Of a stretch of DNA of 64,000 nucleotides, positions 13,529 to 47,802 are shown one piece after another; within the stretch, counting starts at the first letter, position 1, and each line of letters starts with the position of its first letter. Origin of the DNA: Patescibacteria group bacterium (GTDB taxonomy: Bacteria > Patescibacteriota > Patescibacteriia > UBA9934). The notes beneath the pieces are model-generated. The model worked only from the letters and a program-made list of their open reading frames with translations, was not told where the DNA came from and searched no databases. The translations under genes and the position numbers were made by a program. The stretch spans positions 288,992 to 352,991 of the forward strand of contig JBAQTB010000001.1 in NCBI GenBank assembly GCA_049296775.1, written 5' to 3'.

Positions 13529-13792
13529 ATGGAGAATTTTCAAAAAGAGTGGAAATCTTTTAAGCTCGATTTAATGCAATCGATGCATGACGCCTTTCGA
13601 GATAATAATGAGCTCATTTTTCAGGAGATTCGAGCGACTAAAACTGAGTTGCGTCGGGAGTTGATACAGGGTCTTAGGACAACCAAGATTGATCTCATCA
13701 GTGAGATCACTGATTTTATTGGTGATCGACTTCTGCCACAGCTTGACGATCATGAGCGGCGTTTGGTTAAGCTTGAAGCTAAAATCATTTAA
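13529..13792 (+). CDS. Small helical protein, paralog family member 1 of 4
   Basis: 87 aa. It ends ...LLPQLDDHERRLVKLEAKI, which matches ...ILPQMDNHEDRLVVLETKI of the 36670 copy. AFRDNNELIFQEI matches KFRVNNEQLIQMM. It starts 3 nt after the ftsK stop and is followed by a terminator. Confidence 0.55.
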   Translation: MENFQKEWKSFKLDLMQSMHDAFRDNNELIFQEIRATKTELRRELIQGLRTTKIDLISEITDFIGDRLLPQLDDHERRLVKLEAKII

Positions 13793-13797
13793 CTACA

Positions 13798-13826
13798 TGA
13801 AATCCGGCCAGGTGGTCGGATTTTAG
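13798..13826 (+). terminator. Terminator after paralog 1
   Basis: aaatccg gccaggtggtc cggattt, then tt. Confidence 0.5.
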
Positions 13827-13868
13827 TTTGCAAAACAGACAGCTTGGAGTAAAATTACTCTGATCTTT

Positions 13869-14591
13869 ATGGTGTTTGTTAAACGTAAGTTGGATTCTGT
13901 TCCAGAAACACTGGGGGAGAAATTGCGAGCGCTGAGGCGTACTCAAGCGGTGAGTTTGCCAATGTTGGAGCAGATGACCAGAATTCAAAAACGTTATTTA
14001 GAAGCTTTGGAGCATGCTAGGTATGACGAATTGCCTGAGCCGCTGTATACACGTAATTTTTTAAAGGCTTACGCTAGGGCGCTTGGGGCTGATGAGGATT
14101 ATTTTTTAGAGTTGTATGAGGAAGAGGTGGGCCGGACAGATCTGCTGGGCCCGCATCGGCTGCCGCGGATGAGGGTTAGAAAGGGCAGATTTTTTGTACT
14201 CTCGAGAGTTACAACTGGGATTTCTGTGGCTTTGCCAGCGCTAGCAATTGTGATTTATTTATTGGCACAAACTTCTGCGTTATTGAAATCGCCGGAGATT
14301 ATTGTCGAGAGTCCCGTTGATCAATCTGCGGTTAGAACAGCAATTTTGTCAGTTGAGGGTTATGTGACGACAAACGATGTTACCGTGACGGTGAATGACG
14401 AGACGGTCATTGTGGGGGAGGATTTGCGATTTACAACAGAGGTCGATTTATCTAGGGGACTGAATATCATTACCGTAGCGGCTAAACGTAGATATTCACG
14501 TTCGAACGTGATTTATAGGCGAGTAATTTTTGATTCTAACCTCTCAAGTTTTTTACAGGGGATAACTTTCGTGAGCTTTCAAAAAAAGTAA
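13869..14591 (+). CDS. RodZ-like HTH (XRE-type) membrane protein
   Basis: The N-terminus LGEKLRALRRTQAVSLPMLEQMTRIQKRYLEALEHARYDELPEPLYTRNFLKAYARALG resembles the RodZ/HTH_25 N-terminus. It is followed by a single TM segment LPALAIVIYLL. Confidence 0.5.
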   Translation: MVFVKRKLDSVPETLGEKLRALRRTQAVSLPMLEQMTRIQKRYLEALEHARYDELPEPLYTRNFLKAYARALGADEDYFLELYEEEVGRTDLLGPHRLPRMRVRKGRFFVLSRVTTGISVALPALAIVIYLLAQTSALLKSPEIIVESPVDQSAVRTAILSVEGYVTTNDVTVTVNDETVIVGEDLRFTTEVDLSRGLNIITVAAKRRYSRSNVIYRRVIFDSNLSSFLQGITFVSFQKK

Positions 14592-14687
14592 GGTAGACTT
14601 CGTTCGTATTCTGTTCGTATGTCATTTGCTCCTTTTTAAACTTAAATGATTACGAATTAACCTTTAATTAAGTTTTAGTTTGCGTGT

Positions 14688-15752
14688 ATGGCAAAAGCAG
14701 GAGTAAATCCAAGATTAGCAGCGGCCGCAGAAGCGATGAATCAGATCAAGGAACGTTTTGGTGAGGGGAGTATTATGCGTTTTGGTGAGGCTAAGTCTAC
14801 CAACGTAGACGCCGTGCCGACCGGTTGTTTGTCATTAGATCTGGCGCTCGGAGCTTTGGGTGTGCCAAGAGGTCGGGTGATTGAAATTTACGGACCTGAA
14901 TCCTCAGGTAAGACCACCTTGGCTCAGCACATCATTGCAGAATGCCAGAAGGCGGGTGGAATTGCGGCTTTCGTGGATGCTGAGCATGCCCTAGATCCTG
15001 ATTACGCTAGAAAAATCGGAGTGAATGTTGATGAGTTGTTCATTTCTCAACCAGACACGGGTGAACAGGCATTGGAAATTGTAGAAACCTTGGTACGTTC
15101 CAATGCGATTGATGTAATCGTGGTGGACTCGGTGGCAGCTTTGACACCTAAGGCGGAAATTGAGGGCGAGATGGGGGATAGCCACATGGGTCTGCAGGCG
15201 CGTTTAATGAGCCAGGCTTTGCGTAAACTCACTGGGACACTATCTAAGACGGGTACGGTGCTGGTTTTCATTAACCAGATCCGTATGAAGATTGGCGTGA
15301 TGTTCGGTAATCCAGAAACCACTCCGGGTGGTAACGCGCTTAAGTTTTATGCTTCGGTGCGTATGGAGATCCGTAGAGCAGCTCAAATTAAGCAGGGGGA
15401 CAAAGTCATTGGTAACCGGGTCAAGGTTAAGATTGTAAAAAATAAGGTCGCGCCGCCTTTCCGAACAGCAGAATTCGATATTATGTACAATGAAGGAATT
15501 TCTGTGGCTGGCGATATGTTGGACCTTGGGGTGACGGTCGGGTCTTTGGATAAGCGTGGTAATAGCTATGTTTTTGGAGAGGAAAAGCTTGGAGTTGGTC
15601 GTGAGGTAGCCAAATTGTACTTGCGTGAACATCCTGAAACCATGGAAAAACTACGCGGTAAAACTCGAGAAGCAGCTTTGAAGGCTGAGGGTTTGCTCCC
15701 AGTAGCTTCTGAGCTGGATGAGGCAGAATCACCGGTGGCAGAGGTTGTTTAG
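14688..15752 (+). CDS. recA: Recombinase RecA
   Basis: [18 protein letters not shown] Walker A; FVDAEHALD; [28 protein letters not shown]. Canonical throughout. Confidence 0.95.
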
Positions 15753-16024
15753 CGCCATTGGCTTAGAGCAGGTGCGGTGTTATACTGGAGACGAGCTCGT
15801 TTCCAGTATTTGCGGGACAAGACGCGATATTTTCTGACTAGTTATAAAACGCAGTCGGGGTTTAGTCCCTGGCAATCTCTCTCCTCGTGTTTTGGCGCTC
15901 GCTTCAGATTTCTTTCTCTTCGTAGTTCTTGTCCTGCATGTTCTGGCTGTGAGCTGAGTGTTGATGAAGTTTTAGAGTGGCTAAAATTAGCCAAATTTAT
16001 ACCCACTCTTACGGTTGACGTTTA

Positions 16025-16053
16025 CTTAGTCCTTTGATATACTTCCGGACACT
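16025..16053 (+). promoter_or_regulatory. Candidate promoter for rpoBC, followed by an untranslated leader of about 180 nt
   Basis: TTGACG, a 17-nt spacer, then TATACT. No rplKAJL genes lie upstream. The 480-bp gap between recA and rpoB has no convincing ORF. Confidence 0.35.
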
Positions 16054-16233
16054 TGCGCCACCTTACTTGGGGTAGGGGGTCGCGATGTAAAAAAATCTTT
16101 ACTCGTTTAGGCATGTTTGTGAGCCGCCTGAACGCTGCCGCAGTTGGTTTAAATACCACTGTCGTGGCGCCGGAACAAAACGAGCGATAGGAATCAGGAC
16201 ACCAGCCTTTTGGTATGGTGCCTTTTGCGTTTT

Positions 16234-19200
16234 ATGTCAAAAACCATCATTACACAGATTGGAAATAGAAAGGCATTCGCTGCTCTTAACACAGCTGCGG
16301 ATTTGCCAGACCTGATCGAGATCCAGAAGTCATCGTATGACTGGTTCTTAGAGGAAGGTATTCGTGAACTTTTTGATGAAATTTCTCCCATCAAGGACTT
16401 CATTGGTAGGGATCTTGAGCTGACGCTTGAGAATTACTACCTAGATGAGCCGAAATTTGATGAATCTACCAGTCGCGCTAAGAACGTGACTTTTGAAGCT
16501 CCTTTACGTGTTAAGGCTAAGCTTAGGAATTTGCGTAATGAGGACAGTAAGGAGCAGGAGATCTATTTAGGCGATTTGCCGGTCATGACACCGCGCGGCA
16601 CGTTTATTATCAACGGCGTTGAGCGCGTGGTTGTGTCGCAGCTGGTCCGTTCTGCTGGTGCCTTTTTTACAGCCGAAGTTTTGCGTGGTCGTCGTTATTA
16701 CGGTGCTAAGATTATTCCAAATCGGGGTGCCTGGTTAGAGTTTGAAACTGATGCCAAGAACGTAATTTGGGTTAAGATTGATCGTAAGCGTAAGGTGGCT
16801 GTGACCGCTTTGATGCGTGCTTTTGGCTACACCACTAATGAAGAAATCAGCTCTTTGTTTACGGATGTCGATGTTCACCCAGCTATTAAGTACATTGAAG
16901 CAACTTTGCAGAAAGATGTTTCTACCAATGAAGAAGAAGGTTTGCGCGAAGTTTATAAGCGTATCAGACCGGGTGACTTGGCTACGGCTGACAACGCTCG
17001 TCAGTTGATCCACGCCATGTTCTTCAAGTTTGATCGTTATGACTTGGGAGCGGTGGGTCGGTATAAGTTTAATTTGCGTTTTGGAGTTGAAAACCCAGAT
17101 GACAACGTTACTGTTGAAGAACGTCGCATTTTGACTAAGGAAGATTTGGTCGCCATTGTGCGCGAGATCATCCGCCTCAACATTACGCAGGACGAACCGG
17201 ATGATGTTGACCACTTGGGAAATCGCCGTGTGCGTTCAGTGGGCGAGTTGTTGCAGTCACGTTTCAGAATTGGTTTGGCCCGCATGGAGCGGATTGTGAA
17301 GGACAGAATGTCCACTCAGGACATTGATTCTTTGACGCCAGGCAAGTTGATTAACGCCCGTCCAGTTATTGGTGCCGTGCGTGAGTTCTTCATGTCTTCT
17401 CAGCTGTCACAGTTCATGGACCAGACCAACCCGTTGGCTGAATTGGAGCACAAGCGCCGTTTGTCAGCCATGGGTCCTGGAGGTTTGTCACGTGAACGAG
17501 CTGGTTTTGAAGTTCGTGACGTGCACACCACGCACTACGGACGTATTTGTCCAATTGCAACTCCTGAAGGTCCGAACATTGGTTTGGTGGGTCACTTGGC
17601 TAGCTATGCCCGCGTGAACCCTTACGGTTTTATTGAAACTCCTTACAGAAAGGTGGTTAAAGTTGGTGACAGAGCTCAGGTTAGTGAAGAAATGGTGTAC
17701 TTGAATGCTTTCACAGAAGAGAAGGCGGTCACTTGTCCGGCTACCATTATTATTGATGCCAAGGGCTTTTTGGTGGATGAATACGTAGAAGGTCGTGAGC
17801 ACGGTGAGCCACGTTTGGTGCGCTCACGAGACGTTGAGTACATGGACGTGTCTACCACTCAGATTGTGTCAGTAGGTACGGCTTTGATTCCTTTCCTTGA
17901 GCACGACGACGCTACCCGTGCTCTGATGGGTACGAATATGCAACGTCAGGCTGTGCCAACAGTTAAGCCACAGGCGCCACTTATTGGTACGGGCATGGAG
18001 CGCCGCGCCGCGCTTGATTCTGGTCACGTTTTAGTGGCAGAAGAAGACGGTAATGTTACTGAAGCTGATGGCGTTAAGATCACCGTGGATTACAAGAAGA
18101 AGGGCATGGTGACTTACAAGTTGAACAAGTATTTACGGTCTAACAACTCAACAGCGATCACTCAGCGCCCTACCATTGTGGCGGGCATTAAGGTCAAGAA
18201 GGGTGACGTTTTGGCTGATGGTCCGTCTGTTCAGAATGGTGAATTGGCACTCGGTCAGAACATGCTCGTAGCCTTTATGAGCTGGGGTGGTTACAACTAC
18301 GAAGACGCTGTGATCATGTCAGAACGCGTGGTTCAGGATGACCGTTTCACCACCATTCACTTGGAGCACCTCACCTTAGATGTGCGCGATACCAAGCTTG
18401 GTCCTGAGGTGGTAACATCTGACATTCCAAACGTGTCTGAAGAAAAATTGAAGAATTTGGATGCTGAAGGTGTTATTCGCGTGGGTGCAGAGGTTAAGAG
18501 TGGTGACATTTTGGTAGGTAAGATTACCCCTAAGGGTGAGACCGAGCTGTCTGCTGAAGAAAAATTGTTGCGTGCCATTTTCGGTGAAAAAGCACGTGAG
18601 GTGCGTGACTCTTCCTTGTATTTAGAGCATGGTCGTAAGGGTAAGGTGGTAGATATCAAAGTCTTCTCTAGAGAAGAGGGGGACAATTTGCCTCCAGGAG
18701 TGATCAAATCTATTCAGGTTACCATTGCCGACCTCCGTAAGTTGCAGGCCGGTGACAAGGTAGCTGGAAGACACGGTAACAAGGGTGTGGTGTCGATTGT
18801 AGTGCCGGTTGAAGACATGCCATTCACTGAAGATGGTAGACCAGTTGACGTGATTTTGACTCCGCTTGGTGTGGTGTCACGTATGAACTTGGGTCAGATT
18901 CTTGAAGTTCACTTGGGTCTTGCGGCCGATAAGCTAGGTTTCAATGTGGCTACACCAGTTTTTGCTGGAGCTCCAGACGTAGCTATCAGAGAGCAGTTAG
19001 TGGCCGCTGGTTACCCAGAGAGTGGTCAGTTGCGCTTGATTGACGGTCGTACCGGTGAAGCTTTTGATCATGCGGTGACCGTGGGTATCATGTACATGCT
19101 CAAGTTGAACCACATGGTTGAGGATAAGATGCACCAGCGCTCTATTGGTCCATACTCGCTCATTACTCAGCAGCCACTTGGTGGTAAGGCTCAGTTTGGA

Positions 19201-19476
19201 GGTCAGCGTTTTGGAGAAATGGAAGTTTGGGCGTTGGAGGCCTACGGCGCAGCGCACACCTTGCAAGAGATTCTGACGATTAAGTCAGATGACGTACCGG
19301 GCCGTGCCAAAGCTTACGAGGCGATCATTAAGGGGGAGATCATTACTAAGGTGAATATTCCAGAGTCCTTTAACGTGTTGATTCGTGAGTTAAAGGGTCT
19401 TGGTCTTGATGTTGAACTATTGAAAAATACCAAGAAAGTCGAGTTTGGAGATGACAAGCCTAACCGACGCGCCTAA
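16234..19476 (+). CDS. rpoB: DNA-directed RNA polymerase subunit beta
   Basis: Canonical beta motifs throughout (RxxPGDL..., [17 protein letters not shown]). The ATG at 16234 is preferred over the ORF-track start at 16210. Confidence 0.95.
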
Positions 19477-19487
19477 CCTCAAGCCTT

Positions 19488-22400
19488 ATGTCGATGAAAT
19501 TCGAAACCCTAAAATCTACCGACTTTGACTCGATTAAGCTCAAAGTTGCTTCTCCGGACGTGATTCGGAGTTGGTCATATGGTGAGGTTAGTAAGCCTGA
19601 AACCATTAACTACCGAACTCAGAAGCCTGAAAAACAGGGATTGTTTGCTGAAGAAATTTTCGGACCGTCTAAGGACTGGGAGTGTTACTGTGGTAAGTAC
19701 AAAAAGATCCGTTACAAGGGTATCGTATGTGATAAATGTGGCGTAGAAGTTACGCAGACCTCAGTGCGCCGTGAGCGCATGGGTCATATTGAGTTGTCTG
19801 CTCCAGTCACACATATTTGGTTCTTGCGCGGCGTACCCTCAAAGATCGGTACGGTCTTGGACATGAGTGTTCAGCAGATCGAAAAAGTTGTGTACTTTGG
19901 CGCCTTCATTATTACGGACGTAGTTGAAGAGGCTAGAGTGCAGACTTTGGAGCAAGTAAAAGAGGAGTACAAGGCTAAGAAGAAGATGATTGAGGGTGAA
20001 GTCAAGCGTGATTTGGCGCGTGCAGAAGAAAAGTTGGCAGATGATAAAGCTGGTTTGAAGGCTGAAATCAAGCGTATTAATGAGATCTCTGAGGCTAAGC
20101 TTGAGGAACTTGAGACTGACTTTATCCAGGTAGATAAGGATTTGAAGGAGCTAGCGCCACTCAAGGTTATTAGCGAGGCTACTTACCATGACTGGTCCAT
20201 GCGCTACGGCCACATTTTTGATGCTGGTATTGGTGCCGAGGCCATTGCTAAGTTGCTTGAGCGCGTGAATATCCCAGAAACAGTTAAGGTCTTAAACGAG
20301 GAGCTAGAGAATACCTCTTCAAAGGCTAAGTATGACCGCATCATGCGTCGTTTGAAGTTGTTTAAGGCTTTGAACAAGAATGATGTTAACCCAGGTTGGA
20401 TGATTACGCGCGTGTTGCCAGTGATCCCTCCAGATTTGCGTCCAATGGTGCCGCTCGATGGTGGTCGTTTCGCTACCTCTGATTTGAACGATTTGTATCG
20501 ACGCGTCATTAACCGCAATAACCGTTTGCGCCGCTTGTTCGCTTTGAACGCACCTGAAGTTATTACTAGAAATGAGAAGCGCATGTTGCAGGAGGCAGTT
20601 GATGCTTTGATCGATAACTCAGCCAGACAGTCTAAGACAGTTATCGCAGCCACGGGTAAAAAGCGCCAGTTGAAGTCTTTGGCCGATATTTTGAAGGGTA
20701 AGCAGGGTCGTTTCCGCCAGAACTTGCTCGGTAAGCGTATCGACTACTCCGGTCGTTCAGTCATTGTGGTTGGACCACATCTGAAGTTGTCTGAGTGTGG
20801 TATTCCAAAGAAGATGGCGTTGGAATTGTTCCGCCCATTCGTGATCGCTAAGTTAATTGGTCGCGAGTACGTGCATAACATTCGTTCAGCGAACCGGTTC
20901 ATTGAAAGTGATCGGGCTGAGGTTTGGGATATTTTGGAAGAAGTCACTAAAGATAGCTACGTGCTCTTGAACCGTGCTCCAACTTTGCACCGTTTGGGTA
21001 TTCAGGCCTTTAGACCGAAATTGATTGAAGGTAAGGCGCTGCAGATTCATCCTTTAGTGTGTGAAGCATACAACGCTGACTTCGACGGCGACCAAATGGC
21101 GGTCCACGTGCCTTTGACGGCCGAGGCTCGTTATGAGGCTGAGCATTTGATGTTGTCTATTCGTAACTTACTGAAGCCATCTTATGGTGGACCGGTAGCT
21201 ACGCCTGGAAAAGATATTGCTTGGGCCTGTTTCTACTTGACCTCAACGCATACCGAGGCTGATGAGAAGGATCTATTCTCATTTGCAGATGAAGATGAAG
21301 CAATTTATGCGCAGGAGGCAGGTGTAGTGAAACTACAGGATTGGATTCGTGTGCAGCGTAACGGTGAGAATTTGGTGACCACGGTTGGTCGTATCATCGT
21401 TAACCGCATGTTCCCGGAGAAGATCGGCTATCAGAACAAGATTTTGGCCAAGAAAGAGTTGGCTAACATTATTCGCGATATTCTTGAGTATTACGGTCAG
21501 GAATTTACGGCGGGTATCTTGGATGAATTGAAGGAGCTTGGCTTTAAGTACGCCACGGCCTCCGGTTATTCATGGGGTATGGGCGGTTTGCCTGAGGTGG
21601 TTGGTAAGAAAGAGTTGATTGAGGATGGTGATAGACGCATTTTGGAAGTTGAGAATTATTACGAGCAAGGTTTATTGACGCAGAGTGAGCGTCATAGCCA
21701 GATCATCAAGATTTGGACTGAGATCAAGGATAGTATTGCTGAGTTAGCTAAGACATCTTTGCCACATACTAGCTCTGCTTACACCATGATTGAATCTGGT
21801 GCTCGTGGTGCTTGGGGTCAGTTGACTCAGATGATCGGTATGATTGGTCTGAAGAGCTCACCATCTGGAGACATTATTGAATTGCCGGTGAAATCTTCCT
21901 TCAAGGACGGCGTGTCTGTGCTGGAGTTCTTCATCTCTAGCCACGGTGTGCGTAAAGGTCTAACCGATACCGCGCTTAAGACCGCTAATGCTGGTTATTT
22001 GACCCGTCGTTTGGTGGATGTGGCTCAGGATGTGGTGGTGCGTGAAGTAGATTGTGGTGATGATAAGGGCGTATTGCTGACCAGAACTGAATCTGAAGAA
22101 ATTGGTGAGGCTTTGCTGATCCGTATTCTTGGACGCATGGCGTTGTCTGATGTTTTGATGCCAGGGGAGCGCAAGGCCATTATTCAGGCGGGAGAATTGA
22201 TCACAGAAGATCATATTCGTGAGATGAAGAAGTCTGGTAAGGAGCTAGAAGAGGCACATGTGCGTTCAGTTATGACCTGCCGAATTCGTCGGGGTGTGTG
22301 TCAGAAGTGTTACGGATATGACTTGGCACACAACAAGTTGGTCAAAATGGGAACAGCGGTAGGTATTATGGCCGCTCAGTCTATTGGTGAGCCGGGTACA

Positions 22401-23513: not shown

Positions 23514-23522
23514 GCTGATCAC

Positions 23523-23557
23523 AAAATCGGTCCCCATGCGGGATCGATTTTGTTTTT
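23523..23557 (+). terminator. Terminator after rpoC
   Basis: aaaatcggtccc catgc gggatcgatttt, then gttttt. Confidence 0.5.
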
Positions 23558-23605
23558 GCGTCAGGGTATGATGTCTGTAGCTCCCCAGCCTTTGATTATT
23601 TATTT

Positions 23606-23869
23606 GTGTGTATGTTTGATCGGCAGACACTTGATCAACTGCGTGGGGTAATGAAGGAGGTTATTCGTGCAGAGGTCCCTCCAATTGTTAAAGACATTGT
23701 CCAAAAAGAAATTTCTGAGCTTATGGAATATCAGATTATTCCACAATTTAACGATATCCATCGTGAATTAGCCTGGATCAAGAATCGTATGGTCACCAAA
23801 GATTTTCTTGAAGAGCGATTAGAGAGATTTCGAGTTGATCTGGGACTGAAATATCGAGCTGTTACCTAA
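23606..23869 (+). CDS. Small helical protein, paralog family member 2 of 4
   Basis: 87 aa. IIPQFNDIHRELAWIKNRM parallels LPQLDDHERRLVKLEAKI of members 1 and 3. It lies downstream of rpoC with its own terminator (ggacgag...ctcgttttt). Confidence 0.5.
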   Translation: MCMFDRQTLDQLRGVMKEVIRAEVPPIVKDIVQKEISELMEYQIIPQFNDIHRELAWIKNRMVTKDFLEERLERFRVDLGLKYRAVT

Positions 23870-23932
23870 AAAGCCTTACAGGACGAGTTTTAATGGCTCG
23901 TTTTTGTTTTTGTAACAAGGTATTATGTAGGT

Positions 23933-24433: not shown

Positions 24434-24454
24434 AGAAAATGTTATACTTGAGCC

Positions 24455-31057: not shown

Positions 31058-31058
31058 T

Positions 31059-36669: not shown

Positions 36670-36978
36670 ATGGAGATGACCAAGGAACAATTGAAAGATG
36701 TTTTCAGCGAAGTGATGGATGAGAAGTTCAGGGTGAATAATGAGCAGTTAATCCAGATGATGGACGATGAGTTTAGATATAATAATGATTTATTGTTGCA
36801 AGAGATGAGGGCGGTCGAAAATAGGATAGAGAAAAATTTTGATAACAAGCTTACGGTTACAAAAGATGAAATTTTAGCTGGGGTCGCTGACCTAGTAGGC
36901 GGGAGTATCCTGCCTCAAATGGATAATCATGAGGACCGATTGGTAGTCCTTGAAACGAAGATTTCGGTCAAAGGTTAG
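36670..36978 (+). CDS. Small helical protein, paralog family member 3 of 4
   Basis: 102 aa. FRVNNEQLIQMM and ILPQMDNHEDRLVVLETKI match member 1. It starts 12 nt after the trmD stop. Confidence 0.55.
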   Translation: MEMTKEQLKDVFSEVMDEKFRVNNEQLIQMMDDEFRYNNDLLLQEMRAVENRIEKNFDNKLTVTKDEILAGVADLVGGSILPQMDNHEDRLVVLETKISVKG

Positions 36979-37152: not shown

Positions 37153-37181
37153 TTGACAGGGTTTTTTATATCGGTTAAACT
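37153..37181 (+). promoter_or_regulatory. Candidate rRNA promoter
   Basis: TTGACA, a 17-nt spacer, then TAAACT, about 400 nt upstream of the mature 16S 5' end. Confidence 0.45.
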
Positions 37182-37579
37182 GCCGCTCGTCGCTGAAAGA
37201 TCCTTAGTCCTTTCCCATTCGGTCCATTTTCGACTCACGAAGCCTCGGCGGTTTCGTCTACGTAGTATTCACTACGTTTCCTCACCGCCACTCCGTTTAT
37301 CGAAACTAGCCTCGAATGAGAAAGTCCTAATGTCAAAATCTTCTGGACGTGGACTTTCACAATTTAGATAACCATATCAAAACGATGTATCAACCCCACA
37401 GTAGAAGCTTCGCTTCACTGTAGGGCTAAGCAATGATTAATTGTGTGATTACAACGTCCTATTCCAAAGTCCTAAACCCTCGGGTTTAGGCGACTATGAG
37501 GTGATACGTAAGTATCTACTTAATGGTTTAGCAGATACCCCAAACGTAGCTCCGCAAGGAGCGAAGTGGGGGTGTTTTT

Positions 37580-39071
<1,492 letters not shown>

Positions 39072-39191
39072 TCAAAGGAATTTTCCTTTATCGGTCGAGA
39101 TCATAGAGTCGTACGTAAGTATGACTTTACGATACACGGGACGTTGTAATCACAGAGTTAGTCATTAGAGCATCGCTTGATTGGTATCAAA

Positions 39192-39240: not shown

Positions 39241-39270
39241 TTTTATGAGATATCGAGATTATCGGAAACG

Positions 39271-39302: not shown

Positions 39303-39396
39303 TGTCATAAAGTAGTCATCGCTTTGCTCTGACACTTTATGACTATCACGAAGAGGGACGAAAACAAAAAAGAAATCCGTTTGGATTTCTACTTTG

Positions 39397-39471
39397 TGGT
39401 GCCGGGAGACAGGATCGAACTGTCGACACAAGGTTCTTCAGACCTTTGCTCTACCACTGAGCTACCCCGGC
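39397..39471 (-). tRNA. tRNA-Phe (anticodon GAA)
   Basis: Reverse complement is GCCGGGGTAGCTCAGTGGTAGAGC...AAGGT CTGAAGA ACCTT...GGTTCGATCC...CCCGGC A CCA. Its own hairpin plus T-run (agaaatcc gttt ggatttct) lies at 39368-39396. Confidence 0.85.
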
Positions 39472-39774
39472 GTAAGGAAGATTCATTTAAATAACCCCTC
39501 TCCTTTGTTGCGGGTCCCTGATTTTTATTCACCGTATGGTTACATACGCCTCATAAAAATCTTTCCCGCGCCTCGGATAGAATTATTTAAATGAATCTTC
39601 CTGAGGGTATTGAATTTAACGGATCTTCTTGATGTTTGTCTGCGTTGTGAAAAGTTGATTTAAACAGTTGGATACGAGGAGTCGACTGAGTAAGGACGAA
39701 GCGTATATGGAATACGGTGAGTCCGACGGAAGGCGACGACAATGTAGCCGGCTGTTTAAATCAACTTTTCTTAC

Positions 39775-39851
39775 TGGTGGGTGTGGATGGATTCGAACCA
39801 TCGACCTCTTCCTTATCAGAGAAACGCTCTAACCAACTGAGCTACACACCC
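39775..39851 (-). tRNA. tRNA-Ile (anticodon GAT)
   Basis: Reverse complement is GGGTGTGTAGCTCAGTTGGTTAGAGC G TTTCT CTGATAA GGAAG ... GGTTCGAATCC ... CACACCC A CCA. Confidence 0.85.
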
Positions 39852-39934
39852 AAAATGTCAAAGAATAACGAGGATATAGTAATGCTAAAATGGGGTATCG
39901 TCAAGCGTGCAGTAGCTTGCTATAATGCTCAGGT

Positions 39935-40891: not shown

Positions 40892-40997
40892 GCTGGTAAT
40901 ATCAACGATTATGACCGGCTCTTCAGGGGCCGGTCTTGATTTTTACGCGATTTTGTGCTATTATTTAATGTCCCTTAACTCAGTATCTGGAGGTTGA

Positions 40998-41222
40998 ATG
41001 ACGATTGATAAGGTGATGACGAAAGATGAAAAGGCACAAGCGCAGCTTCGGTTGCAGGATCAGTCTTACCTGAAGCTGGTGGGCTTGCTGGCGCTATTAC
41101 TCGGGCTAACGCTCGTGCCGGACTGCTTACCATTCGTGGACGAGGCGATTCTCGTGGCGATGAGTGTGCCGGTTCAGATGGCGATTGTTCGTAAGTTTTT
41201 GACGGACATTGGTCTTCTCTAG
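40998..41222 (+). CDS. Small hypothetical protein (one TM helix)
   Basis: 74 aa, with GGAGG 6 nt upstream of the ATG. No homology recognised. Confidence 0.25.
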   Translation: MTIDKVMTKDEKAQAQLRLQDQSYLKLVGLLALLLGLTLVPDCLPFVDEAILVAMSVPVQMAIVRKFLTDIGLL

Positions 41223-41352
41223 GGGCTGGCTGGGTGCATCTGCATTCGGCCGGCCACGTTTCTTTACTTATTCTAGGAATTTGCCTAAAATATCCCCTTG
41301 GGGTATTATTTGGCCGCACAAGTCTAGCGGATTTATTGAGTGTTAAGAGTAT

Positions 41353-41428
41353 CGGGCTGTGGCGCAGTTGGTAGCGCGGCTGGTTTGGGACCAGCAGGTC
41401 GCAGGTTCGAGCCCTGTCGGCCCGACCA
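41353..41428 (+). tRNA. tRNA-Pro (anticodon TGG)
   Basis: CGGGCTG T G GCGC AGTTGGTA GCGC G GCTGG TTTGGGA CCAGC AGGTC GCAGG TTCGAGC CCTGT CGGCCCG A CCA. Confidence 0.85.
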
Positions 41429-41430
41429 CA

Positions 41431-41462
41431 AAAAGCATGACTTCGGTCATGCTTTTTGTGTT
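41431..41462 (+). terminator. Terminator after tRNA-Pro
   Basis: aaaaagcatgac ttcg gtcatgcttttt. Confidence 0.55.
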
Positions 41463-41517
41463 TACAGCCGAAGCAGGCCAATAGTTTGGCCTGCGGCATG
41501 GTCGTTACAGCGTATTT

Positions 41518-42186
41518 TTGATGACGTGCTACAATCACATTATGAAATACCCGTCAGTGACGATGGAATTGCAGATGGTAGCTGGGGGATATCCGGTGGT
41601 GATTGGAGTTGATGAAGCGGGGAGAGGGTGTTTGGCGGGGCCGGTAATCGCGGCGGCGGTGGTGTTTGAATGGGGGAGTGAGATGCAGAAAGCGCGACGT
41701 GAGCTGAAAAAGCTCGTGCGGGACAGTAAATTGTTGCCACGTGAGACCCGCAGAGAAGCTAATGCTCTTATTCGGGCGCATGCTCAGGCTTTTGCGATTG
41801 GCTCCAGTGAGGCGGATGAGATCGACCGGATCAATATTCTCCAAGCGACGTTTGTGGCTATGAATCAGGCGGTGAGCAGAGTAAAAGAGCAGTTGCCGAC
41901 TCAGGATATGTTTATTTTGGTGGACGGTAATAAGACCATCCCGGGTGTTGGAGGGATGCAGGAGGCAATTATTGATGGCGATGCCAAGATTTTTACCATT
42001 GCGGCAGCTTCGATTATTGCTAAGGAGCACCGGGATAGCCTCATGGAGAAGGTGCATGAGATGTATCCTCAGTATAATTTTGCTAAACACAAAGGTTACG
42101 GCACCCTAGAACACCGCCGAGCCATTGAACAACACGGCATGTCGCCCGTCCATCGTCTAACCTTTACCGTAAAGAATACCCGGTGA
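41518..42186 (+). CDS. rnhB: Ribonuclease HII
   Basis: VVIGVDEAGRGCLAGPV catalytic DEAGRG motif; DSKLL; EIDRINILQAT. The start is uncertain; the Met at 41578 is plausible. Confidence 0.85.
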   Translation: MMTCYNHIMKYPSVTMELQMVAGGYPVVIGVDEAGRGCLAGPVIAAAVVFEWGSEMQKARRELKKLVRDSKLLPRETRREANALIRAHAQAFAIGSSEADEIDRINILQATFVAMNQAVSRVKEQLPTQDMFILVDGNKTIPGVGGMQEAIIDGDAKIFTIAAASIIAKEHRDSLMEKVHEMYPQYNFAKHKGYGTLEHRRAIEQHGMSPVHRLTFTVKNTR

Positions 42187-42306
42187 GACTTGTATTTTTA
42201 TTATAATTGAGGTACATTCATTGGTCCTAGCAATAGGATAAATGACTAACCTTGGGCCTGGACATAGTGTCTGGGTGTGGGGGTTGGCCAATTTGCGAGG
42301 TGTTAG

Positions 42307-42951
42307 ATGAGCAGCAAAAATGTGTCCTGGATGGCGATGCTTGGTCAGGTGTCCAACTTTTTGGCGGTACTTTTGAAGGCCGTGGAGGAGATGGGCGGTT
42401 CCGAGGCCGATCTGAACGTCGCATCGGCCAATCTCACGAAGATGCGTGATCTGGCCGCTCACATCATGGGCATGCCTTGTACGCTGGCCCCGGTCACGAT
42501 TTTCGTGACCATAGTCCGGTACGTTATACCGAGCTTCGATGAATTGCAGCGTCAGTTCGATCGGGTGGATCTAGGGTTCGATCGAGCGCAATTCGATTCC
42601 GTCGACGAATGCAAGAATGTTGGAACCGTCACTCGCCAGCGTCAGTTCGTCTACATTCATCTGGGACGCCACGCCTCGGATGCCGAAGTGCTGGCCGAGC
42701 ACAAGCTTCGGGGGGTTCGTCCAGCCACCGTCCATGAGCTCTTGGCACATGCAGCTAATCGGCCCGATGATCAATATGAGTTTACGATCGTGGCCTTGGG
42801 CTCGGTCGTGGTTGACGGGAAAAACCGCCGTGTCGCGCTCCTGCATGGCGATACTCGTGGTCGAGCTCTTGTTCTGTTTCCGATGGACTACGGTGGTTGG
42901 CACGGAGACTACCGGTTTCTCGCCGTTCTCGAGGCGCCGATGGCCATTTAG
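42307..42951 (+). CDS. Hypothetical protein, GC-rich, paralog of the 26358 gene
   Basis: 214 aa. VHELLAHAANRPDDQYEF...KNRRVALL aligns with TSELLAHAAQYSFQV...HRRNLVLV of the 26358 product. Visibly GC-richer than the flanking rnhB and sufB. Confidence 0.45.
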   Translation: MSSKNVSWMAMLGQVSNFLAVLLKAVEEMGGSEADLNVASANLTKMRDLAAHIMGMPCTLAPVTIFVTIVRYVIPSFDELQRQFDRVDLGFDRAQFDSVDECKNVGTVTRQRQFVYIHLGRHASDAEVLAEHKLRGVRPATVHELLAHAANRPDDQYEFTIVALGSVVVDGKNRRVALLHGDTRGRALVLFPMDYGGWHGDYRFLAVLEAPMAI

Positions 42952-43124
42952 TCCTCGGCGTTGGCCTTGGGCTCTTGGTCGGGTCGTGACGTACACGGCC
43001 TGACCGCACGAACCGTCTTCATGCGCGTGCATGGGACGGTTCTTCTTTTTTAGACTTCACGAACGGGGGCTTTTTAGGTAGGCTAGACGTCTTCCTTGGT
43101 CTTATGTGACCAGGGGCAGGGACT

Positions 43125-44507
43125 ATGCCAATTTCTAGGGAGGTTTTTGAAAATGCATCAGAACATGAGCCTAAGTTTAAGGCTCCGTTTGGGTTAAGTC
43201 GAGAGACGATTATCGATATTTCAACGCAAAAAGGTGAGCCAGATTGGATGTTAGACAAGCGGTTGCGGGCTTTTGAGTTTTTTGAAAAAGCTCCCATGCC
43301 AGGCTGGGGACCGTCACTAGCTGGCCTCGACCTTAAGGCGATTACATATTTTGTACGACCAGATACGGCGGAGTCTAAAACCTGGGCGGAGGTGCCGGAG
43401 GAGATTAGGGAGACGTTTGAGAAGCTGGGTATTCCAGAGGCGGAGCGTGAGGCGCTCGGGGGAGTGGGGGCACAGTATGACTCTGACATGGTGTATCACA
43501 ATTTGAAGGCGGAGTTGTCTGCCAAGGGGGTGATTTTTGAGAACATGGACGTGGCGGTGCGGGAACACGCGGAGCTGGTTAAGGAGTATTTCATGACCCA
43601 GTGTGTGCCTATTCATGATCATAAGTTTGCCATGTTGCATGCGGCGGTATGGAGTGGTGGCACGTTTATTTATGTGCCTAAAGGTGTCCAGGTCGACATT
43701 CCTCTGCAGGCGTATTTCCGGATGAACACGGAACGGGGTGGACAGTTTGAACACACGTTGATTATTGCGGATGAAGGGAGTGATGTACATTACATTGAAG
43801 GTTGCTCGGCGCCTAAGTTTCAGGCCGCGGCGTTGCATGCGGGCTGTGTGGAGATTTTTGTGAAACCAGGGGCTAGAGTGCGGTATTCAAGTATCGAAAA
43901 TTGGAGTAAGAATACGTTCAATTTGAACACTAAACGAGCTGTGGTTGATGCCGGCGGCCGGATTGAATGGTTGAATGGGAATATGGGGAGTGGTACCACC
44001 ATGCTGTACCCGATGAGTGTGTTGCGTGGGAGGGGTGCCAAGAGTGATTACCTAGGGATTGCCTTTGCTGGCCCGTTACAACATCAGGATACCGGTCATA
44101 AGCTGGCGATAGTGGCGCCGGAGTGTGCGGCTACGGTGTTATCTAAGAGTATTTCTGGCGGCGGCGGAAGATCGACCTACCGCGGCATCGTGAAGGTGAC
44201 AGCTGGGGCGGAAAGAGCTAAAGTGAGGGTTCAATGTGACGCGTTAATGCTAGATGGCGCCTCAAGTTCAACCACGATTCCGGTCATGCGCGTAGAGAAC
44301 GAGAGTGCGAGTGTGGCGCATGAGGCGTCAGTGGGTCGATTAGGTGAAAAAGAGCTGTTTTATTTGCAGTGTTTGGGCCTGACTGAACAGGCGGCGGTGA
44401 GAATGTTGGTGGCCGGTTTTTTGGAGCCAGTGGTTAAGGAATTGCCGCTCGAGTACGCGGTGGAGTTAGTGAAGTTGATTGAATTAGAGATGGAGAGTGT
44501 GGGTTAG
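43125..44507 (+). CDS. sufB: Fe-S cluster assembly protein SufB
   Basis: HTLIIADEGSDVHYIEGCSAP and the C-terminal ...ELPLEYAVEL; about 460 aa. Confidence 0.9.
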   Translation: MPISREVFENASEHEPKFKAPFGLSRETIIDISTQKGEPDWMLDKRLRAFEFFEKAPMPGWGPSLAGLDLKAITYFVRPDTAESKTWAEVPEEIRETFEKLGIPEAEREALGGVGAQYDSDMVYHNLKAELSAKGVIFENMDVAVREHAELVKEYFMTQCVPIHDHKFAMLHAAVWSGGTFIYVPKGVQVDIPLQAYFRMNTERGGQFEHTLIIADEGSDVHYIEGCSAPKFQAAALHAGCVEIFVKPGARVRYSSIENWSKNTFNLNTKRAVVDAGGRIEWLNGNMGSGTTMLYPMSVLRGRGAKSDYLGIAFAGPLQHQDTGHKLAIVAPECAATVLSKSISGGGGRSTYRGIVKVTAGAERAKVRVQCDALMLDGASSSTTIPVMRVENESASVAHEASVGRLGEKELFYLQCLGLTEQAAVRMLVAGFLEPVVKELPLEYAVELVKLIELEMESVG

Positions 44508-45321
44508 TATGCAGACACAAGCGAATGCAGTATCGACTAGATTGATCCCGCTATCAGAAGATAGCCGGTTGAGTTTGGCGTTGCCGCGAGAGTTGCGGGT
44601 CATGGCTGGTGAGACGCATGTGTGGGATGAGGTGACTGTGATTGCGCGGGGGGAGCGGAGGGTGATTAGTTTGGATGTGCAGCTGGAGGCGGGGGCCGTG
44701 GGTCAGATGACGAGGATCTTTGAAGTGCCGGAAGGGGCGCGATTGCATATTTTTCACCAGGTGCAATTGGAGGCGGGGGCGAGTTGGCAAAATGCCTTGT
44801 GCATCCGGGGGAGTGGCGAGGTAACCATTCGTCGAGCTATAAAAGTATCCGGAAATGGAGCGCGAGTAGCTTTGGCCTGTGCGGCAGTCATGGATAAAAA
44901 GAGCCATATTTCCGTGGCGGATGAAGTGTTTGTCGAGTCCCCAAATGTGCAAGCCAAGGTCGACACAAAAATTGTGCTCAAGCAGGCGGCTAAATCTGAG
45001 GTCAGGGCTAGGCAAGTTGTTGGTCATGAGGCGCGGGGGAGTTTGGCTTACGAACGCGTGGGTCATTTGCTGTTAAGCCCTCAGGCCGTGGCGGCGTGTA
45101 TTCCAGAATTGGAAGTGAAGACAGATGAAGTGGAGTGTGGTCATGCGGCAACTTTTAGTGAGCCGGATGAAGCTGAGATTTTTTATTTGATGAGCCGGGG
45201 GCTGATTAGAGAGGTGGCCCTAGGAGTTGTGGCCAGAGGTTTTGTGAATGCGGCTTTGAGTGCGGTGACTGAGCCGTGGCGAGAGAAGGCTAGTCAGGTG
45301 TTATTTGCGGATTATGTTTAA
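44497..45321 (+). CDS. sufD: Fe-S cluster assembly protein SufD
   Basis: SufB/SufD beta-helix family. The C-terminus is EVECGHAATFSEPDEAEIFYLMSRGL. It overlaps the sufB stop. Confidence 0.75.
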   Translation: MWVSMQTQANAVSTRLIPLSEDSRLSLALPRELRVMAGETHVWDEVTVIARGERRVISLDVQLEAGAVGQMTRIFEVPEGARLHIFHQVQLEAGASWQNALCIRGSGEVTIRRAIKVSGNGARVALACAAVMDKKSHISVADEVFVESPNVQAKVDTKIVLKQAAKSEVRARQVVGHEARGSLAYERVGHLLLSPQAVAACIPELEVKTDEVECGHAATFSEPDEAEIFYLMSRGLIREVALGVVARGFVNAALSAVTEPWREKASQVLFADYV

Positions 45322-46516
45322 CGTCCAAAAGATTAAACGCGATTTCCCGGCTTTGAGAGCAGGGGGAGTGTATTTGGATAATGCCGCTACCACTCAGATG
45401 CCGGAGGTGGTCTGGGAAAGTATGCAGGCGTATTTAGTGGCGGGTAGAGGTAATCCGCACCGCGGTTTGCACGCTTGGGCTGAACGAGCCTCAGGGGCGT
45501 TGCAGGAGTCCCGGAGACAGGTGGCGGCTTTGCTTGGAGCTGAGCCAGACGAGTTGCTGTTTACTAAAAGTGCCACCGAGGGACTGAATTTATTAGCGAC
45601 ATCTTTAGCGGCACATTTGGGTCCAGGTGACGAAGTTTTACTGAGCATTTTTGAGCACCACGCAAATTTGTTGCCGTGGCGAGAGTTGGCTAAACGTCAG
45701 GGTTTTAGTCTGCGGTATATGCCCATGGCGCAGGACGGATCGGTGGATCTCGACCTTGTAAAGGGTATGGTGACGGCGGCTACCAAGGTGATCTCGATCA
45801 CGTACGCATCAAATGTTTTGGGGGTAATTTTGCCAGTGGCTGAGATTACCCGTTTAGGTCATGCGGTGGGGGCGTTGGTGATTGTGGATGCGGCGCAAGT
45901 AGTTGGGCATGTACCCGTTGATGTTAAGATTCTTGGTTGTGATGCGCTAGTTTTTGGTGCTCATAAAATGTACGGGCCGGATGGCGTGGGGGCGGTGTAT
46001 GTGAACGGTAATTTGAGGAAGATGCTGAAGCCGTTTCTGTATGGCGGCGGGATGGTGACGGAGGTTTTAGATGACGAGATTCATTATGCTGACGATCTCC
46101 GTTTATTTGAGGCGGGTAGCCCAAACGTGACCGGAGCAATTGGACTGGCAGCTGCTTGCAAGTATTTAATGTCACTCGGTTTAGCGGAGATTCAGCAGCA
46201 TGAAGCCGGGCTAACACAGGAGCTGATGGCTCGTTTGGTGGAGGTACCTGAGGTTAAGGTTTATGTTCCCAATCCTAAGTTTGGCAGGCTTGGTGTAGTG
46301 TCTATGAGTCTTGAGGGAGTACATTCGCATGATCTAGCGCAGGTGTTAGCTGACCAGGGGATTGCGGTTCGGGCTGGTTATCATTGCGCTGCGCCTTTGA
46401 CGAGATGTTTGAATGTCAGCGGCACCGTGAGAGTCAGTTTGGGTGTTTACAATGACCTAGCCGATATTGAGCAATTGGTGACGGGGATTGAAACGGGTTT
46501 GAAACGTTTGGTATGA
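45305..46516 (+). CDS. sufS: Cysteine desulfurase SufS (class V aminotransferase)
   Basis: YLDNAATTQ; GNPHRGLH; SAHKMYGPDGVG, where the PLP Lys lies in ...FGAHKMYGP; active-site HCAAP... near the C-terminus. Confidence 0.85.
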   Translation: MRIMFNVQKIKRDFPALRAGGVYLDNAATTQMPEVVWESMQAYLVAGRGNPHRGLHAWAERASGALQESRRQVAALLGAEPDELLFTKSATEGLNLLATSLAAHLGPGDEVLLSIFEHHANLLPWRELAKRQGFSLRYMPMAQDGSVDLDLVKGMVTAATKVISITYASNVLGVILPVAEITRLGHAVGALVIVDAAQVVGHVPVDVKILGCDALVFGAHKMYGPDGVGAVYVNGNLRKMLKPFLYGGGMVTEVLDDEIHYADDLRLFEAGSPNVTGAIGLAAACKYLMSLGLAEIQQHEAGLTQELMARLVEVPEVKVYVPNPKFGRLGVVSMSLEGVHSHDLAQVLADQGIAVRAGYHCAAPLTRCLNVSGTVRVSLGVYNDLADIEQLVTGIETGLKRLV

Positions 46517-46884
46517 GCGACATGTACCGGGAGCAATTATTAGAGCACGCCCGTAGCCCCCGTAATTACGGACGCTTAGAGGCGGGGGCGTTGACTTGTC
46601 ATCTAGCTAATCCGTCATGTGGTGACGTGATTGATGTGTTTATACGTTTGGATGCCGATCAGAGGATTGTCGAGGTGTCGTTCACTGGTCAGGGCTGTGT
46701 TATTAGTCAGGCCGCTACGTCAATTTTGCTAGAGAGTGTGCTAGGTAATCGGCTTGACGAAGCGGCGGGTATAGATCAGGCTAGGGTCCTGGAGTTGTTA
46801 GGCGTAATTCCTGGTCCGATGCGTATGAATTGTGCTTTGCTACCTCTCAAAGCCTTACAGAAAATTTATGTTGACTATAAGTAA
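46513..46884 (+). CDS. sufU: SufU/NifU-like sulfur acceptor
   Basis: NPSCGDVIDV and GQGCVISQA carry the conserved Cys pair of the SufU family. Confidence 0.8.
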   Translation: MSDMYREQLLEHARSPRNYGRLEAGALTCHLANPSCGDVIDVFIRLDADQRIVEVSFTGQGCVISQAATSILLESVLGNRLDEAAGIDQARVLELLGVIPGPMRMNCALLPLKALQKIYVDYK

Positions 46885-47542
46885 TTTGAGTGTGCAGCGG
46901 GCCGGCAAGTCAGTGTTGCTAGATTTTAGTTTGCAGCTAGCGGCAGGGGAGTTGGTGGCGGTCGTTGGTCCCAATGGTGTTGGTAAATCCACCTTGGCTT
47001 TGGCCTTGCTTGGGCATCCAGACTGCATGATTACGTCCGGGCAGGTAGATTTGGATGGCCAGGATTTGTTAAGTTTGAAAACTGCGGAGCGCGCTAAGCT
47101 GGGTTTATTTTTGGCGCATCAAGAGCCGCCAGCGATTGCGGGGGTGACTTTGGCGAGTGTCTTGCGGGCTGCGAGTGATGCCACTAGATCGACGCCTTGG
47201 AGTACGGCTGAATTTTTCGATAGGTTAAGGGCTGTGACTGTTAGATTAGGGCTTGGCACAGACTTTGTGAATAGAGATTTACATGTGGGGTTGTCTGGGG
47301 GAGAGAAGAAACGGGCCGAGCTCCTGGCACTGTTAGTCTTGCAGCCTAAGTATGCCATTTTGGATGAGATAGATGCGGGTATGGATACTGAGGCGCGTAC
47401 TTTGACTCAAGAAGTTTTGGCTGAGTTGCGTGCGGCGGGCACGGGCTGTTTGGTTATTTCTCATAATGAAAGTTTTATACATGGATTGAATGCGACTTGT
47501 CAGCTTTCACTCCAATCCTTAAGCGGGGATAAGCGTCTTTGA
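46868..47542 (+). CDS. sufC: Fe-S cluster assembly ATPase SufC
   Basis: GPNGVGKSTLA Walker A; LSGGEKKRAELL signature; ILDEIDAGMD Walker B. The ATG at 46868 is preferred over the ORF-track start at 46832. Confidence 0.9.
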   Translation: MLTISNLSVQRAGKSVLLDFSLQLAAGELVAVVGPNGVGKSTLALALLGHPDCMITSGQVDLDGQDLLSLKTAERAKLGLFLAHQEPPAIAGVTLASVLRAASDATRSTPWSTAEFFDRLRAVTVRLGLGTDFVNRDLHVGLSGGEKKRAELLALLVLQPKYAILDEIDAGMDTEARTLTQEVLAELRAAGTGCLVISHNESFIHGLNATCQLSLQSLSGDKRL

Positions 47543-47574
47543 TAAATCTTATAAGGAGCGTATATTTTTGCAGT

Positions 47575-47802
47575 ATGTCTGATTTTTCTAGAGAACAAAT
47601 AAACATTTTGACCTCAATTGTAGAAAGGGTTGTTGAAGCTAACAACCGCTCGCTCGAGAGATCTTTTGAGTCTAAGCTTGAAGCGAGTAATCGCTCGCTA
47701 GAGCGGTCGGTGGTGAAGGGCGTCTCGGGACTGGTGGATCGATCGATTGAAAGTGAGGGGAGAGATATTCGTGATTTTATTGAGCGCAAGCTTAAAACTT
47801 AG
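47575..47802 (+). CDS. Small helical protein, probable paralog family member 4 of 4
   Basis: 75 aa with the internal repeat NNRSLERSFESKLEASNRSLERS. It is positioned after sufC, as the other members are after ftsK, rpoC and trmD. Similarity to the others is weaker (the ANNRSLE motif aligns with VNNEQLI). Confidence 0.4.
   Translation: MSDFSREQINILTSIVERVVEANNRSLERSFESKLEASNRSLERSVVKGVSGLVDRSIESEGRDIRDFIERKLKT

Follow-up and report, generated by a model that had tools for sequence, protein, structure and literature searches.

The 64,000-nucleotide (nt) stretch of DNA analysed here (the window) is part of a 455,697-bp contig from a metagenome-assembled genome (MAG) of Patescibacteria (candidate phyla radiation; locus tags WAZ14). 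It contains four short genes, m1 to m4, of which m1 and m3 belong, and m2 and m4 probably belong, to an undescribed family of small single-helix proteins that carry an XhlA-like module without a membrane anchor. In the reading that we favor, with a probability of roughly 0.6, these are cytoplasmic proteins of about 75–120 amino acids (aa) that form parallel three-stranded coiled-coil rods. The genes represent neither a new kind of genetic element nor a new operon organisation, but are ordinary, vertically inherited chromosomal genes located in short intergenic slots between housekeeping operons.

An earlier note on this DNA, made from the sequence alone, pointed to four small open reading frames (ORFs) on one strand. 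All four are present on the plus strand and each is annotated by NCBI as 'hypothetical protein'. The canonical members are m1 (13529–13792, 87 aa, WAZ14_01480, MFZ2681747.1) and m3 (36670–36978, 102 aa, WAZ14_01595). The divergent members are m2 (23612–23869, 85 aa, WAZ14_01505) and the orphan-like m4 (47575–47802, 75 aa, WAZ14_01665). The GTG at 23606 from which the earlier note began m2 is 6 nt too early; the NCBI annotation and the orthologues use the ATG at 23612.

Relatedness of the four proteins and extent of the family

The relationship between m1 and m3 is unambiguous. The two proteins are 43% identical across a 72-aa alignment, and phmmer, run against the 1082 six-frame ORFs of the window, gives E = 5e-17, in agreement with the kinship noted earlier. 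Their nucleotide sequences are 52% identical overall and 34% identical at third codon positions, and they are therefore old paralogues and not a recent repeat, as had been proposed. In an exhaustive HMMER search, a profile constructed from this pair was run against 1.84 billion representatives and identified 99 clusters with E ≤ 1e-3; 25 of these have E ≤ 1e-10, and all 99 are 47–173 aa in length. The family was recovered solely by this exhaustive approach; a word-indexed homologue search returned four orthologues for m2 and only the query itself for m3 and for m4. Neither the remainder of the window nor the 9 kb beyond its right edge yielded an additional copy.

The supposition that this is not a known annotated domain also holds, since no Pfam or NCBIfam model covers the family. 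Neither database gives a match to m1–m4, and searches of 98 relatives with Pfam, PHROGs and PADLOC produced no family-level match. Strong PHROG matches (to 6.5e-10) are confined to a single member, P0083, and involve N-terminal QRFDGMD repeats rather than the family motif. The PADLOC results are limited to scattered, single, weak coiled-coil matches, the best of which (2e-5) is to ZorA in one member.

Membership of m2 and m4 is probable but not proven on the basis of sequence comparisons. At the pairwise level the evidence is not significant, with E-values of 0.16 (m2) and 2.9 (m4) when the m1 + m3 profile is compared with the window ORFs. A profile of 100 family sequences gives a different picture, however. 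Among 1086 targets, m3 and m1 are detected with E = 4e-31 and 1.9e-26, m4 (E = 0.0041) and m2 (E = 0.0047) rank right behind them, and the next decoy appears at 0.27. None of 2000 composition-preserving shuffles attains the profile score of m2 or m4. When m2 or m4 is used as the query, dozens of family members outrank the first window decoy, and bridging members can be identified for both: P0099 for m2 (E = 2.3e-7) and P0010 for m4 (E = 3.4e-4). The similarities to the family are collinear at both ends of the two proteins. For m2, an N-terminal LRGxxKEVxxxEVPxIV is common to P0099 and the hinge-PQ-heptad core described below also matches; for m4, an N-terminal MxDFSxxQIxxLxxVV is common to P0010 and P0066 and the hinge GVxxLVDxSI matches.

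We have considered the alternative that only m1, m3 and the canonical family are related and that m2 and m4 are unrelated charged helical proteins whose matches reflect coiled-coil composition. The pairwise E-values are compatible with this interpretation, as are the intermediate scores from profile–profile alignment with hhalign, where the m2 orthologue group aligns to the family with a probability of just 37% (P = 3.7e-4, 17 columns) and m4 with a probability of 53% (P = 1.4e-4, 57 columns). Both proteins also lack the core histidine and the R-hxxhE motif that characterize the family C-terminus, and the word-indexed search of 5.8 billion proteins with m4 found no relative besides m4 itself. 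The ranking of the two proteins as the top non-family matches among the 1086 targets, the priority of family members over window decoys, the shuffle control and the collinearity at both ends argue against a purely compositional origin, which we regard as unlikely. The lack of any relative in that search, together with a degenerate C-terminal module, suggests that m4 may be a fast-evolving or decaying copy.

The C-terminal module and the predicted trimeric rod

The signature of the family is its C-terminus, h-h-P-Q-h-D-[DN]-H-E-x-R-h-x-K-L-E-x-K-x-x (where h is hydrophobic), with the proline located 18 residues from the protein end in most members. A hinge rich in Gly, Asp, Asn and Ser directly precedes the proline and is itself preceded by a conserved I-[IL]-x-G-V-x-D-h-I segment. 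Numbering from the proline as position 0, hydrophobic residues occur at +2, +5, +9, +12 and +16, which is a canonical heptad register, and the hydrophobic period computed for the module is 3.46 residues. Position +5 is His in 84% of members and Leu in 16%, an alternation that identifies it as a core position. Arg +8 and Glu +13 (each conserved in 99%) flank the a/d residues +9 and +12, with Arg at g and Glu at e, and these four positions are the most conserved in the family. The resulting motif, Arg(g)-h(a)-x-x-h(d)-Glu(e) or R-hxxhE, specifies parallel three-stranded coiled coils (PMC3653964), and there is mutational evidence for its role as a trimer motif in FapF (PMC6173795). Exceptions to the rule are known and include dimers and antiparallel trimers (PMC3653964). 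Among the C-terminal 22 aa, R[ILVM]xx[LIV]E can be recognised in 90 of the 100 members, an enrichment of about 60-fold per residue relative to the window ORFs.

The full signature is carried by m1 and m3. The m1 module (13736–13789, plus strand; aa 70–87, PQLDDHERRLVKLEAKII) is proline-capped, contains the core His and has RLVKLE as its R-hxxhE motif; the m3 module (36913–36975, plus strand; aa 82–102, PQMDNHEDRLVVLETKISVKG) has RLVVLE. The divergent proteins retain different parts of this arrangement. In m2, the hinge, the hh-P-Q-h segment and the heptad core are present (IIPQFNDIHRELAWIKNRM), with Ile in place of His, no R…E pair and a 25-aa C-terminal extension. In m4, the N-terminus (MSDFSREQINILTSIV continuing to ANN) and a GVSGLVDRSI hinge fit the family, and the PQxDxHE/R-hxxhE module is degenerate (SIESEGRDIRDFIERKLKT).

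The body that precedes the hinge is constructed differently. It consists of units of about 15 residues such as FRxNNxxLxQEh, and its hydrophobic period is 3.75 residues, compared with 3.46 in the C-terminal module. The number of units varies among paralogues and even among orthologues: the FRxNNxxLxQEh unit occurs once in m1 and twice in m3 (as FRxNNxxLxQxM). The earlier note had extended this 'NN' block to m4, where the counterpart is similar and consists of two A(N/S)NRSLERS units. We also observe that an m2 orthologue, P0003 (positions 6001–6294 of the related groundwater genome locus L001), is longer by a 12-residue unit, EVPPLVRKIVRE, a duplicate of the adjacent EVPPIVKEIVQKE, so that repeat number changes between orthologues despite very strong purifying selection.

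An AlphaFold prediction for m3, made with a 98-sequence alignment, consists of a single continuous helix spanning residues 5–101, with a predicted local distance difference test (pLDDT) score of 96.3. This agrees with the helical character ascribed to these proteins earlier. A Foldseek search with the single-helix model gave no matches, as expected for a model of this kind. The family proteins are acidic, with a median isoelectric point of 5.2. Neither a hydrophobic nor a transmembrane (TM) segment is present in m1–m4, where the maximum 19-residue Kyte–Doolittle mean is 0.35–1.03, and one family representative alone exceeds 1.6, in an N-terminal extension that is probably mis-called. The absence of a TM segment speaks against the tail-anchored factor that had been suggested as one possible function.

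We infer a trimeric, cytoplasmic assembly with the following organization. The helices would associate into parallel three-stranded coiled-coil rods, in which the N-terminal body of 15-residue repeats would set the length of the rod and allow it to be lengthened or shortened by repeat duplication. The Gly/Asp/Ser hinge would join the body to the C-terminal helix, and this proline-capped, 18-residue heptad helix would nucleate and fix the trimer through the R-hxxhE motif. The core layer before this motif would hold a ring of three His residues with Asp, Asp and Glu alongside. It is consistent with three-strandedness that the weak PDB and profile matches of the family, described below, are to trimeric coiled coils. 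A structural spacer or an adaptor is a candidate role for such rods among others, all of them hypothetical.

Several points weigh against this reading. The m3 prediction was run for the monomer only, and the corresponding model of m2, based on four sequences, has low confidence (pLDDT 53) and is uninformative. Because m2 and m4 lack both R-hxxhE and the core His, the trimer mechanism may not apply to these two proteins, and the intermediate hhalign scores reported above leave their place in the family less secure. The suggestion that the His3 layer could be a metal- or proton-binding site is purely conjectural. Finally, no conserved gene neighbour that would provide a functional clue is found around m1–m4 or at the loci of the relatives.

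The body periodicity raises a second possibility, namely that each protein is a monomer whose amphipathic helix, of the apolipoprotein, late embryogenesis abundant or perilipin type, rests on the surface of membranes or lipids instead of forming rods. A body period of 3.67–3.75 resembles that of 11-mer amphipathic repeats, 4 of 98 members weakly match Pfam Apolipoprotein, single members match Perilipin or ApoLp-III, and a hydrophilic, acidic, multi-copy family would suit such a function. These Pfam matches are sporadic and below threshold, however (PF01442, best E = 1.2e-4; none in m1–m4), and a helix lying on a surface leaves the heptad module, the R-hxxhE motif and the His/Leu core position unexplained. 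The straight, highly confident helix obtained with AlphaFold is also at odds with it. We consider this quite improbable.

Comparison with XhlA-like phage proteins and other coiled coils

As judged from sequence, the closest known relative of the C-terminal module appears to be XhlA (PF10779). The XhlA of PBSX is a membrane protein that works with the holin XhlB (PMC5589764). Like XhlA, the family proteins are small, and they resemble it in the N-terminal coiled coil of that protein. The motif (KPQLDDHEARIRELEGK) recurs in a group of TM-anchored proteins from a Clostridia locus, two IMG/VR viral matches and three metagenome contigs, where a TM helix comes after it at the C-terminus. The family shares with these XhlA-like proteins (L009, L019/L030, L020/L022, L032 and L035) a 16-residue stretch, P-Q-h-D-D-H-E-x-R-I-x-x-L-E-x-K, and one TM-anchored gene adjoins a gene for an NlpC/P60-SH3 endolysin-like protein. 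The TM-anchored genes are located at L009 5733–6720, L019 1089–1304, L020 9580–9819, L032 1689–1904 and L035 1069–1494. Their products, small proteins of phage or prophage, contain two consecutive R-hxxhE motifs before the TM helix. None attains the gathering score of Pfam XhlA, and the group is a possible XhlA branch that the model does not cover.

There are also clear differences. The XhlA-type proteins continue into a C-terminal TM helix, whereas the family proteins end 3–5 residues after the motif and have no TM segment. The XhlA-type genes are found in lysis cassettes next to endolysin or holin genes, whereas the family genes lie among housekeeping genes: FtsK, HTH_25, RpoC, RuvC, TrmD, 16S ribosomal RNA (rRNA), Suf and ClpP genes surround m1–m4, with no lysis-cassette context, and the relatives neighbour GroEL, Pth, a transfer RNA (tRNA) synthetase and GyrA. 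The family is in addition multi-copy and has a long, variable repeat body. With regard to the Pfam model, the gathering score of 34.7 bits is not reached: m1–m4 give no match, one of the 98 relatives matches PF10779 with E = 3.7e-5, the other relatives score 12–15 bits and the TM-anchored look-alikes 14–21 bits. Because the family proteins score below the Pfam threshold, have no TM helix and are not encoded in lysis cassettes, they are not placed in the XhlA family.

Could the proteins nevertheless derive from, or act on, XhlA-like lysis proteins, with soluble copies that co-assemble with them and modulate or poison lysis as an anti-phage decoy? The occurrence of PQ(I/L)DDHExRIxxLExK on TM-anchored proteins of viral contigs, once beside an NlpC/P60-SH3 gene, and the partnership of XhlA with a holin in PBSX lysis are in favor of this idea, as is a profile–profile probability of 96.7% between the TM group and the family over the 22 columns of the motif, a score that is partly circular because the TM group was itself collected by scanning for the motif. 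The TM-anchored proteins, however, come from Clostridia-like and high-GC contigs and not from Patescibacteria, and their best score with Pfam XhlA is 21 bits. A tblastn search against cultured phages returned nothing for m3 or for the TM-anchored form, PADLOC likewise offers no match in support, and the family genes are syntenic in housekeeping regions, outside defence islands. A lysis decoy therefore seems very improbable. A broader version would have the C-terminal module mediate both the formation of mixed-length paralogue trimers (combinatorial rods) and co-assembly with XhlA-like phage proteins, with soluble copies as lysis decoys or regulators in cells that are ultra-small and the His3/Asp/Glu layer as a metal or pH switch; as a combined proposal, this is very doubtful.

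The three-stranded rod that we favor invites comparison with other coiled coils. The spacing Arg(g)-[ILV](a)-x-x-[LIV](d)-Glu(e), in the correct register and in 90% of members, is shared with the parallel trimers coronin-1, ccbeta and the FapF periplasmic domain (Kammerer et al. 2005, as cited in PMC3653964). In the family, by contrast, the motif is fused to PQxDDHE with its core His and to a body of 15-residue repeats that is not heptad-based, and the likeness is a shared structural determinant, not shared ancestry. A profile search of the PDB gave short coiled-coil matches only. Heptad repeat A of the bovine respiratory syncytial virus (RSV) F protein (5tdg_A residues 171–202, KNYIDKELLPQLNNHDCRISNIETV) matches the family hinge-P-Q-h-x-x-H-x-x-R-I-x-x-h-E with E = 0.002, and the P22/Sf6 tail needle gp26 matches the TM-anchored group with E of about 0.001; the Pfam model Phage_tail_NK gives 0.009–0.16. 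These matches to RSV F and gp26 cover 20–30 residues, are below threshold and do not extend to the wider architecture, and they are most simply explained as convergent trimer-type heptads. Pfam DUF7310, a coiled-coil region of unknown function, and DUF16 also recur as weak matches to the C-terminal region (E = 0.004–0.2; 14–17 bits, compared with a gathering score of 40), with no shared signature motif seen. DUF16 is a multi-copy family of small coiled-coil proteins in the reduced genome of Mycoplasma.

Genomic setting, inheritance and distribution

The earlier note placed all four genes at the 3′ ends of core operons, a few nucleotides after the stop codon of a conserved gene, and proposed that each is closed by its own terminator. 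The identities of the upstream genes are confirmed by Pfam: FtsK for m1, RpoC for m2, TrmD for m3 and, for m4, a SufC-like ABC ATPase that ends a suf cluster. Downstream are an HTH_25 protein (m1), RuvC (m2), a lone 16S rRNA gene (m3) and ClpP (m4). Stop-to-start distances of 2 nt (m1) and 14 nt (m3) agree with this description and the 32 nt of m4 does so loosely, but m2 begins 98 nt after rpoC with a terminator between. Convincing downstream terminators are confined to m1 and m2, and a terminator scan of the flanks 3′ of m3 and m4 gave none.

The hairpin 3′ of m1 (13798–13825, plus strand) is terminator-like, with a 12-bp stem followed by UAGUUUG and an RNAfold free energy of about -18.6 kcal/mol for the region; it was missed by the terminator scan because its U-tract is one U short. 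The intrinsic terminator of rpoC, between rpoC and m2 (23521–23553, plus strand), has a 14-bp stem and a U-tract (free energy -19.7). It is conserved with compensatory base changes in the related groundwater genome (L001 5871–6000). The terminator 3′ of m2 (23880–23904, plus strand) is also conserved in L001. The 27 nt that abut the m2 start codon (23585–23611, plus strand; CCAGCCTTTGATTATTTATTTGTGTGT) are identical in L001 although synonymous sites in the neighbouring genes are saturated, and L001 has an extra hairpin inserted between the rpoC terminator and this element. No sigma-70 consensus is found in the rpoC–m2 spacer by a promoter scan. The conserved 27 nt are a candidate promoter, leader or translation-initiation element of m2.

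These data bear on the proposal that the proteins are modular factors coupled to the preceding essential operon as co-transcribed tails. Supporting it, 2, 14 and 32 nt separate m1, m3 and m4 from the co-oriented ftsK, trmD and SufC-like genes, and the positions of m1 and m2 are conserved in relatives. In the reading favored here, m1 and m3 are probably co-transcribed with the upstream gene. However, terminators intervene between rpoC and m2 and, in a relative, between ftsK and the m1 orthologue (P0008, L037). A strong terminator flanks that orthologue on either side, and an 88-nt spacer parts it from ftsK; both it and m2 are separate terminator-bounded units. At other loci, the gene before a family member is SufS-like or encodes GroEL, Pth or a flavoprotein. 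P0099 (before a tRNA synthetase gene) and P0013 (before a gyrA cluster) are at the 5′ ends of units behind divergent genes, and tandem pairs occur at L033 235–984 and L036 8829–9581, on the same strand and about 140 nt apart, the second copy carrying the variant QPQLNSHNxRIIRLE. Across 24 non-redundant loci, the upstream gene is co-oriented at 75%, compared with a baseline of 71% for adjacent pairs in this window, and upstream gaps are mostly 70–150 nt. A position after a core gene is expected for any small gene in a compact, co-oriented genome. Riding on the tails of essential transcripts is therefore not supported as a rule, and a functional coupling to the preceding operon appears extremely improbable.

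The slot occupied by P0013 is empty in the genome to which the window belongs, which also counts against such a coupling. In the genome where it is filled (L045 803–1054), the gene lies upstream of a 228-aa gene, a Lactamase_B_3 gene, a 125-aa gene and gyrA, and the equivalent position here (L040 3800–3971) is a 171-nt spacer. The difference shows that family copies are gained or lost at individual sites.

Where orthologues can be compared, inheritance is vertical. The m2 orthologues are syntenic between rpoC and ruvC, and one was recovered from Uhrbacteria-rich groundwater of the Hainich H41 wells. For m2 and its orthologue, the nonsynonymous divergence (dN) is 0.044 and the synonymous divergence (dS) about 1.09, giving a dN/dS of 0.04, and the two proteins are 91% identical; the corresponding values are 86% for RpoC, over its C-terminal 300 residues, and 64% for RuvC. 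The m1 protein is 70% identical to P0008, with a proportion of nonsynonymous differences of 0.17 and saturated synonymous sites, and both genes are found in the order efp-ftsK-X-HTH-recA-rpoB. Selection and synteny at m1 and m2 therefore exclude spurious ORFs, RNA elements and selfish mobile genes. An RNA element was rejected on the grounds that the protein is conserved while synonymous sites are saturated, and a selfish or mobile element, of which the earlier note had entertained the selfish form, because the genes are syntenic and under purifying selection and neither repeats nor mobility genes are present.

Some features of the flanking genes deserve mention. The FtsK tail (approximately 13290–13526), which ends 2 nt before m1, comprises about 80 extremely Asp/Glu-rich residues past the gamma domain (residues 642–702). 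The 16S rRNA gene begins about 600 nt 3′ of m3 (37577–39072) and has no adjoining 23S or 5S gene; the next tRNA genes, tRNA-Phe (39397–39471) and tRNA-Ile (39775–39851), are both on the minus strand, opposite to it. In bacteria of the candidate phyla radiation it is common for rRNA genes to be unlinked. Between m3 and the 16S gene, at 37153–37181, there is a promoter-like TTGACA-17-TAAACT sequence. Upstream of m4, the SufC-like ORF as mechanically called starts at a GTG at 46832 and overlaps the preceding SufU-like gene by 53 nt (46832–46884); its true start is probably an internal Met (MLTISNL...) about 36 nt downstream.

To survey the wider distribution, the C-terminal motif was written as a degenerate DNA pattern, for which less than one chance match is expected. 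It catches about 30% of members, so that copy numbers per genome are lower bounds. Among GTDB species genomes, 13 loci were found: nine in Candidatus Uhrbacteria (two genomes having two loci each), one in another Patescibacterium, two on contigs labelled Gammaproteobacteria and one in a Clostridia MAG. Further members occur on metagenome contigs. The two genes on Gammaproteobacteria-labelled contigs (L013 979–1311 and L014 49–300) are TM-less and of the family type; they are on 'uncultured Gammaproteobacteria' MAG contigs with a GC content of 45–46%, one of them two genes from dnaA and the other adjoining tgt. These contigs may be Patescibacteria sequences that were wrongly binned, or else the family may be more widely distributed. 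The family appears to be lineage-restricted, mainly to Candidatus Uhrbacteria and related Patescibacteria.

Patescibacteria genomes are tiny and much of their gene content is unannotated. A multi-copy family, represented four times within 64 kb of a very small genome, that is under purifying selection and that in the case of m2 is conserved above the adjacent stretch of RpoC, likely does something that the cells need. The module shared with XhlA could illuminate the role of the XhlA cytoplasmic coiled coil, for which no description was found, and the signature, the profile and a testable trimer model make four hypothetical proteins tractable for structural and biochemical study.

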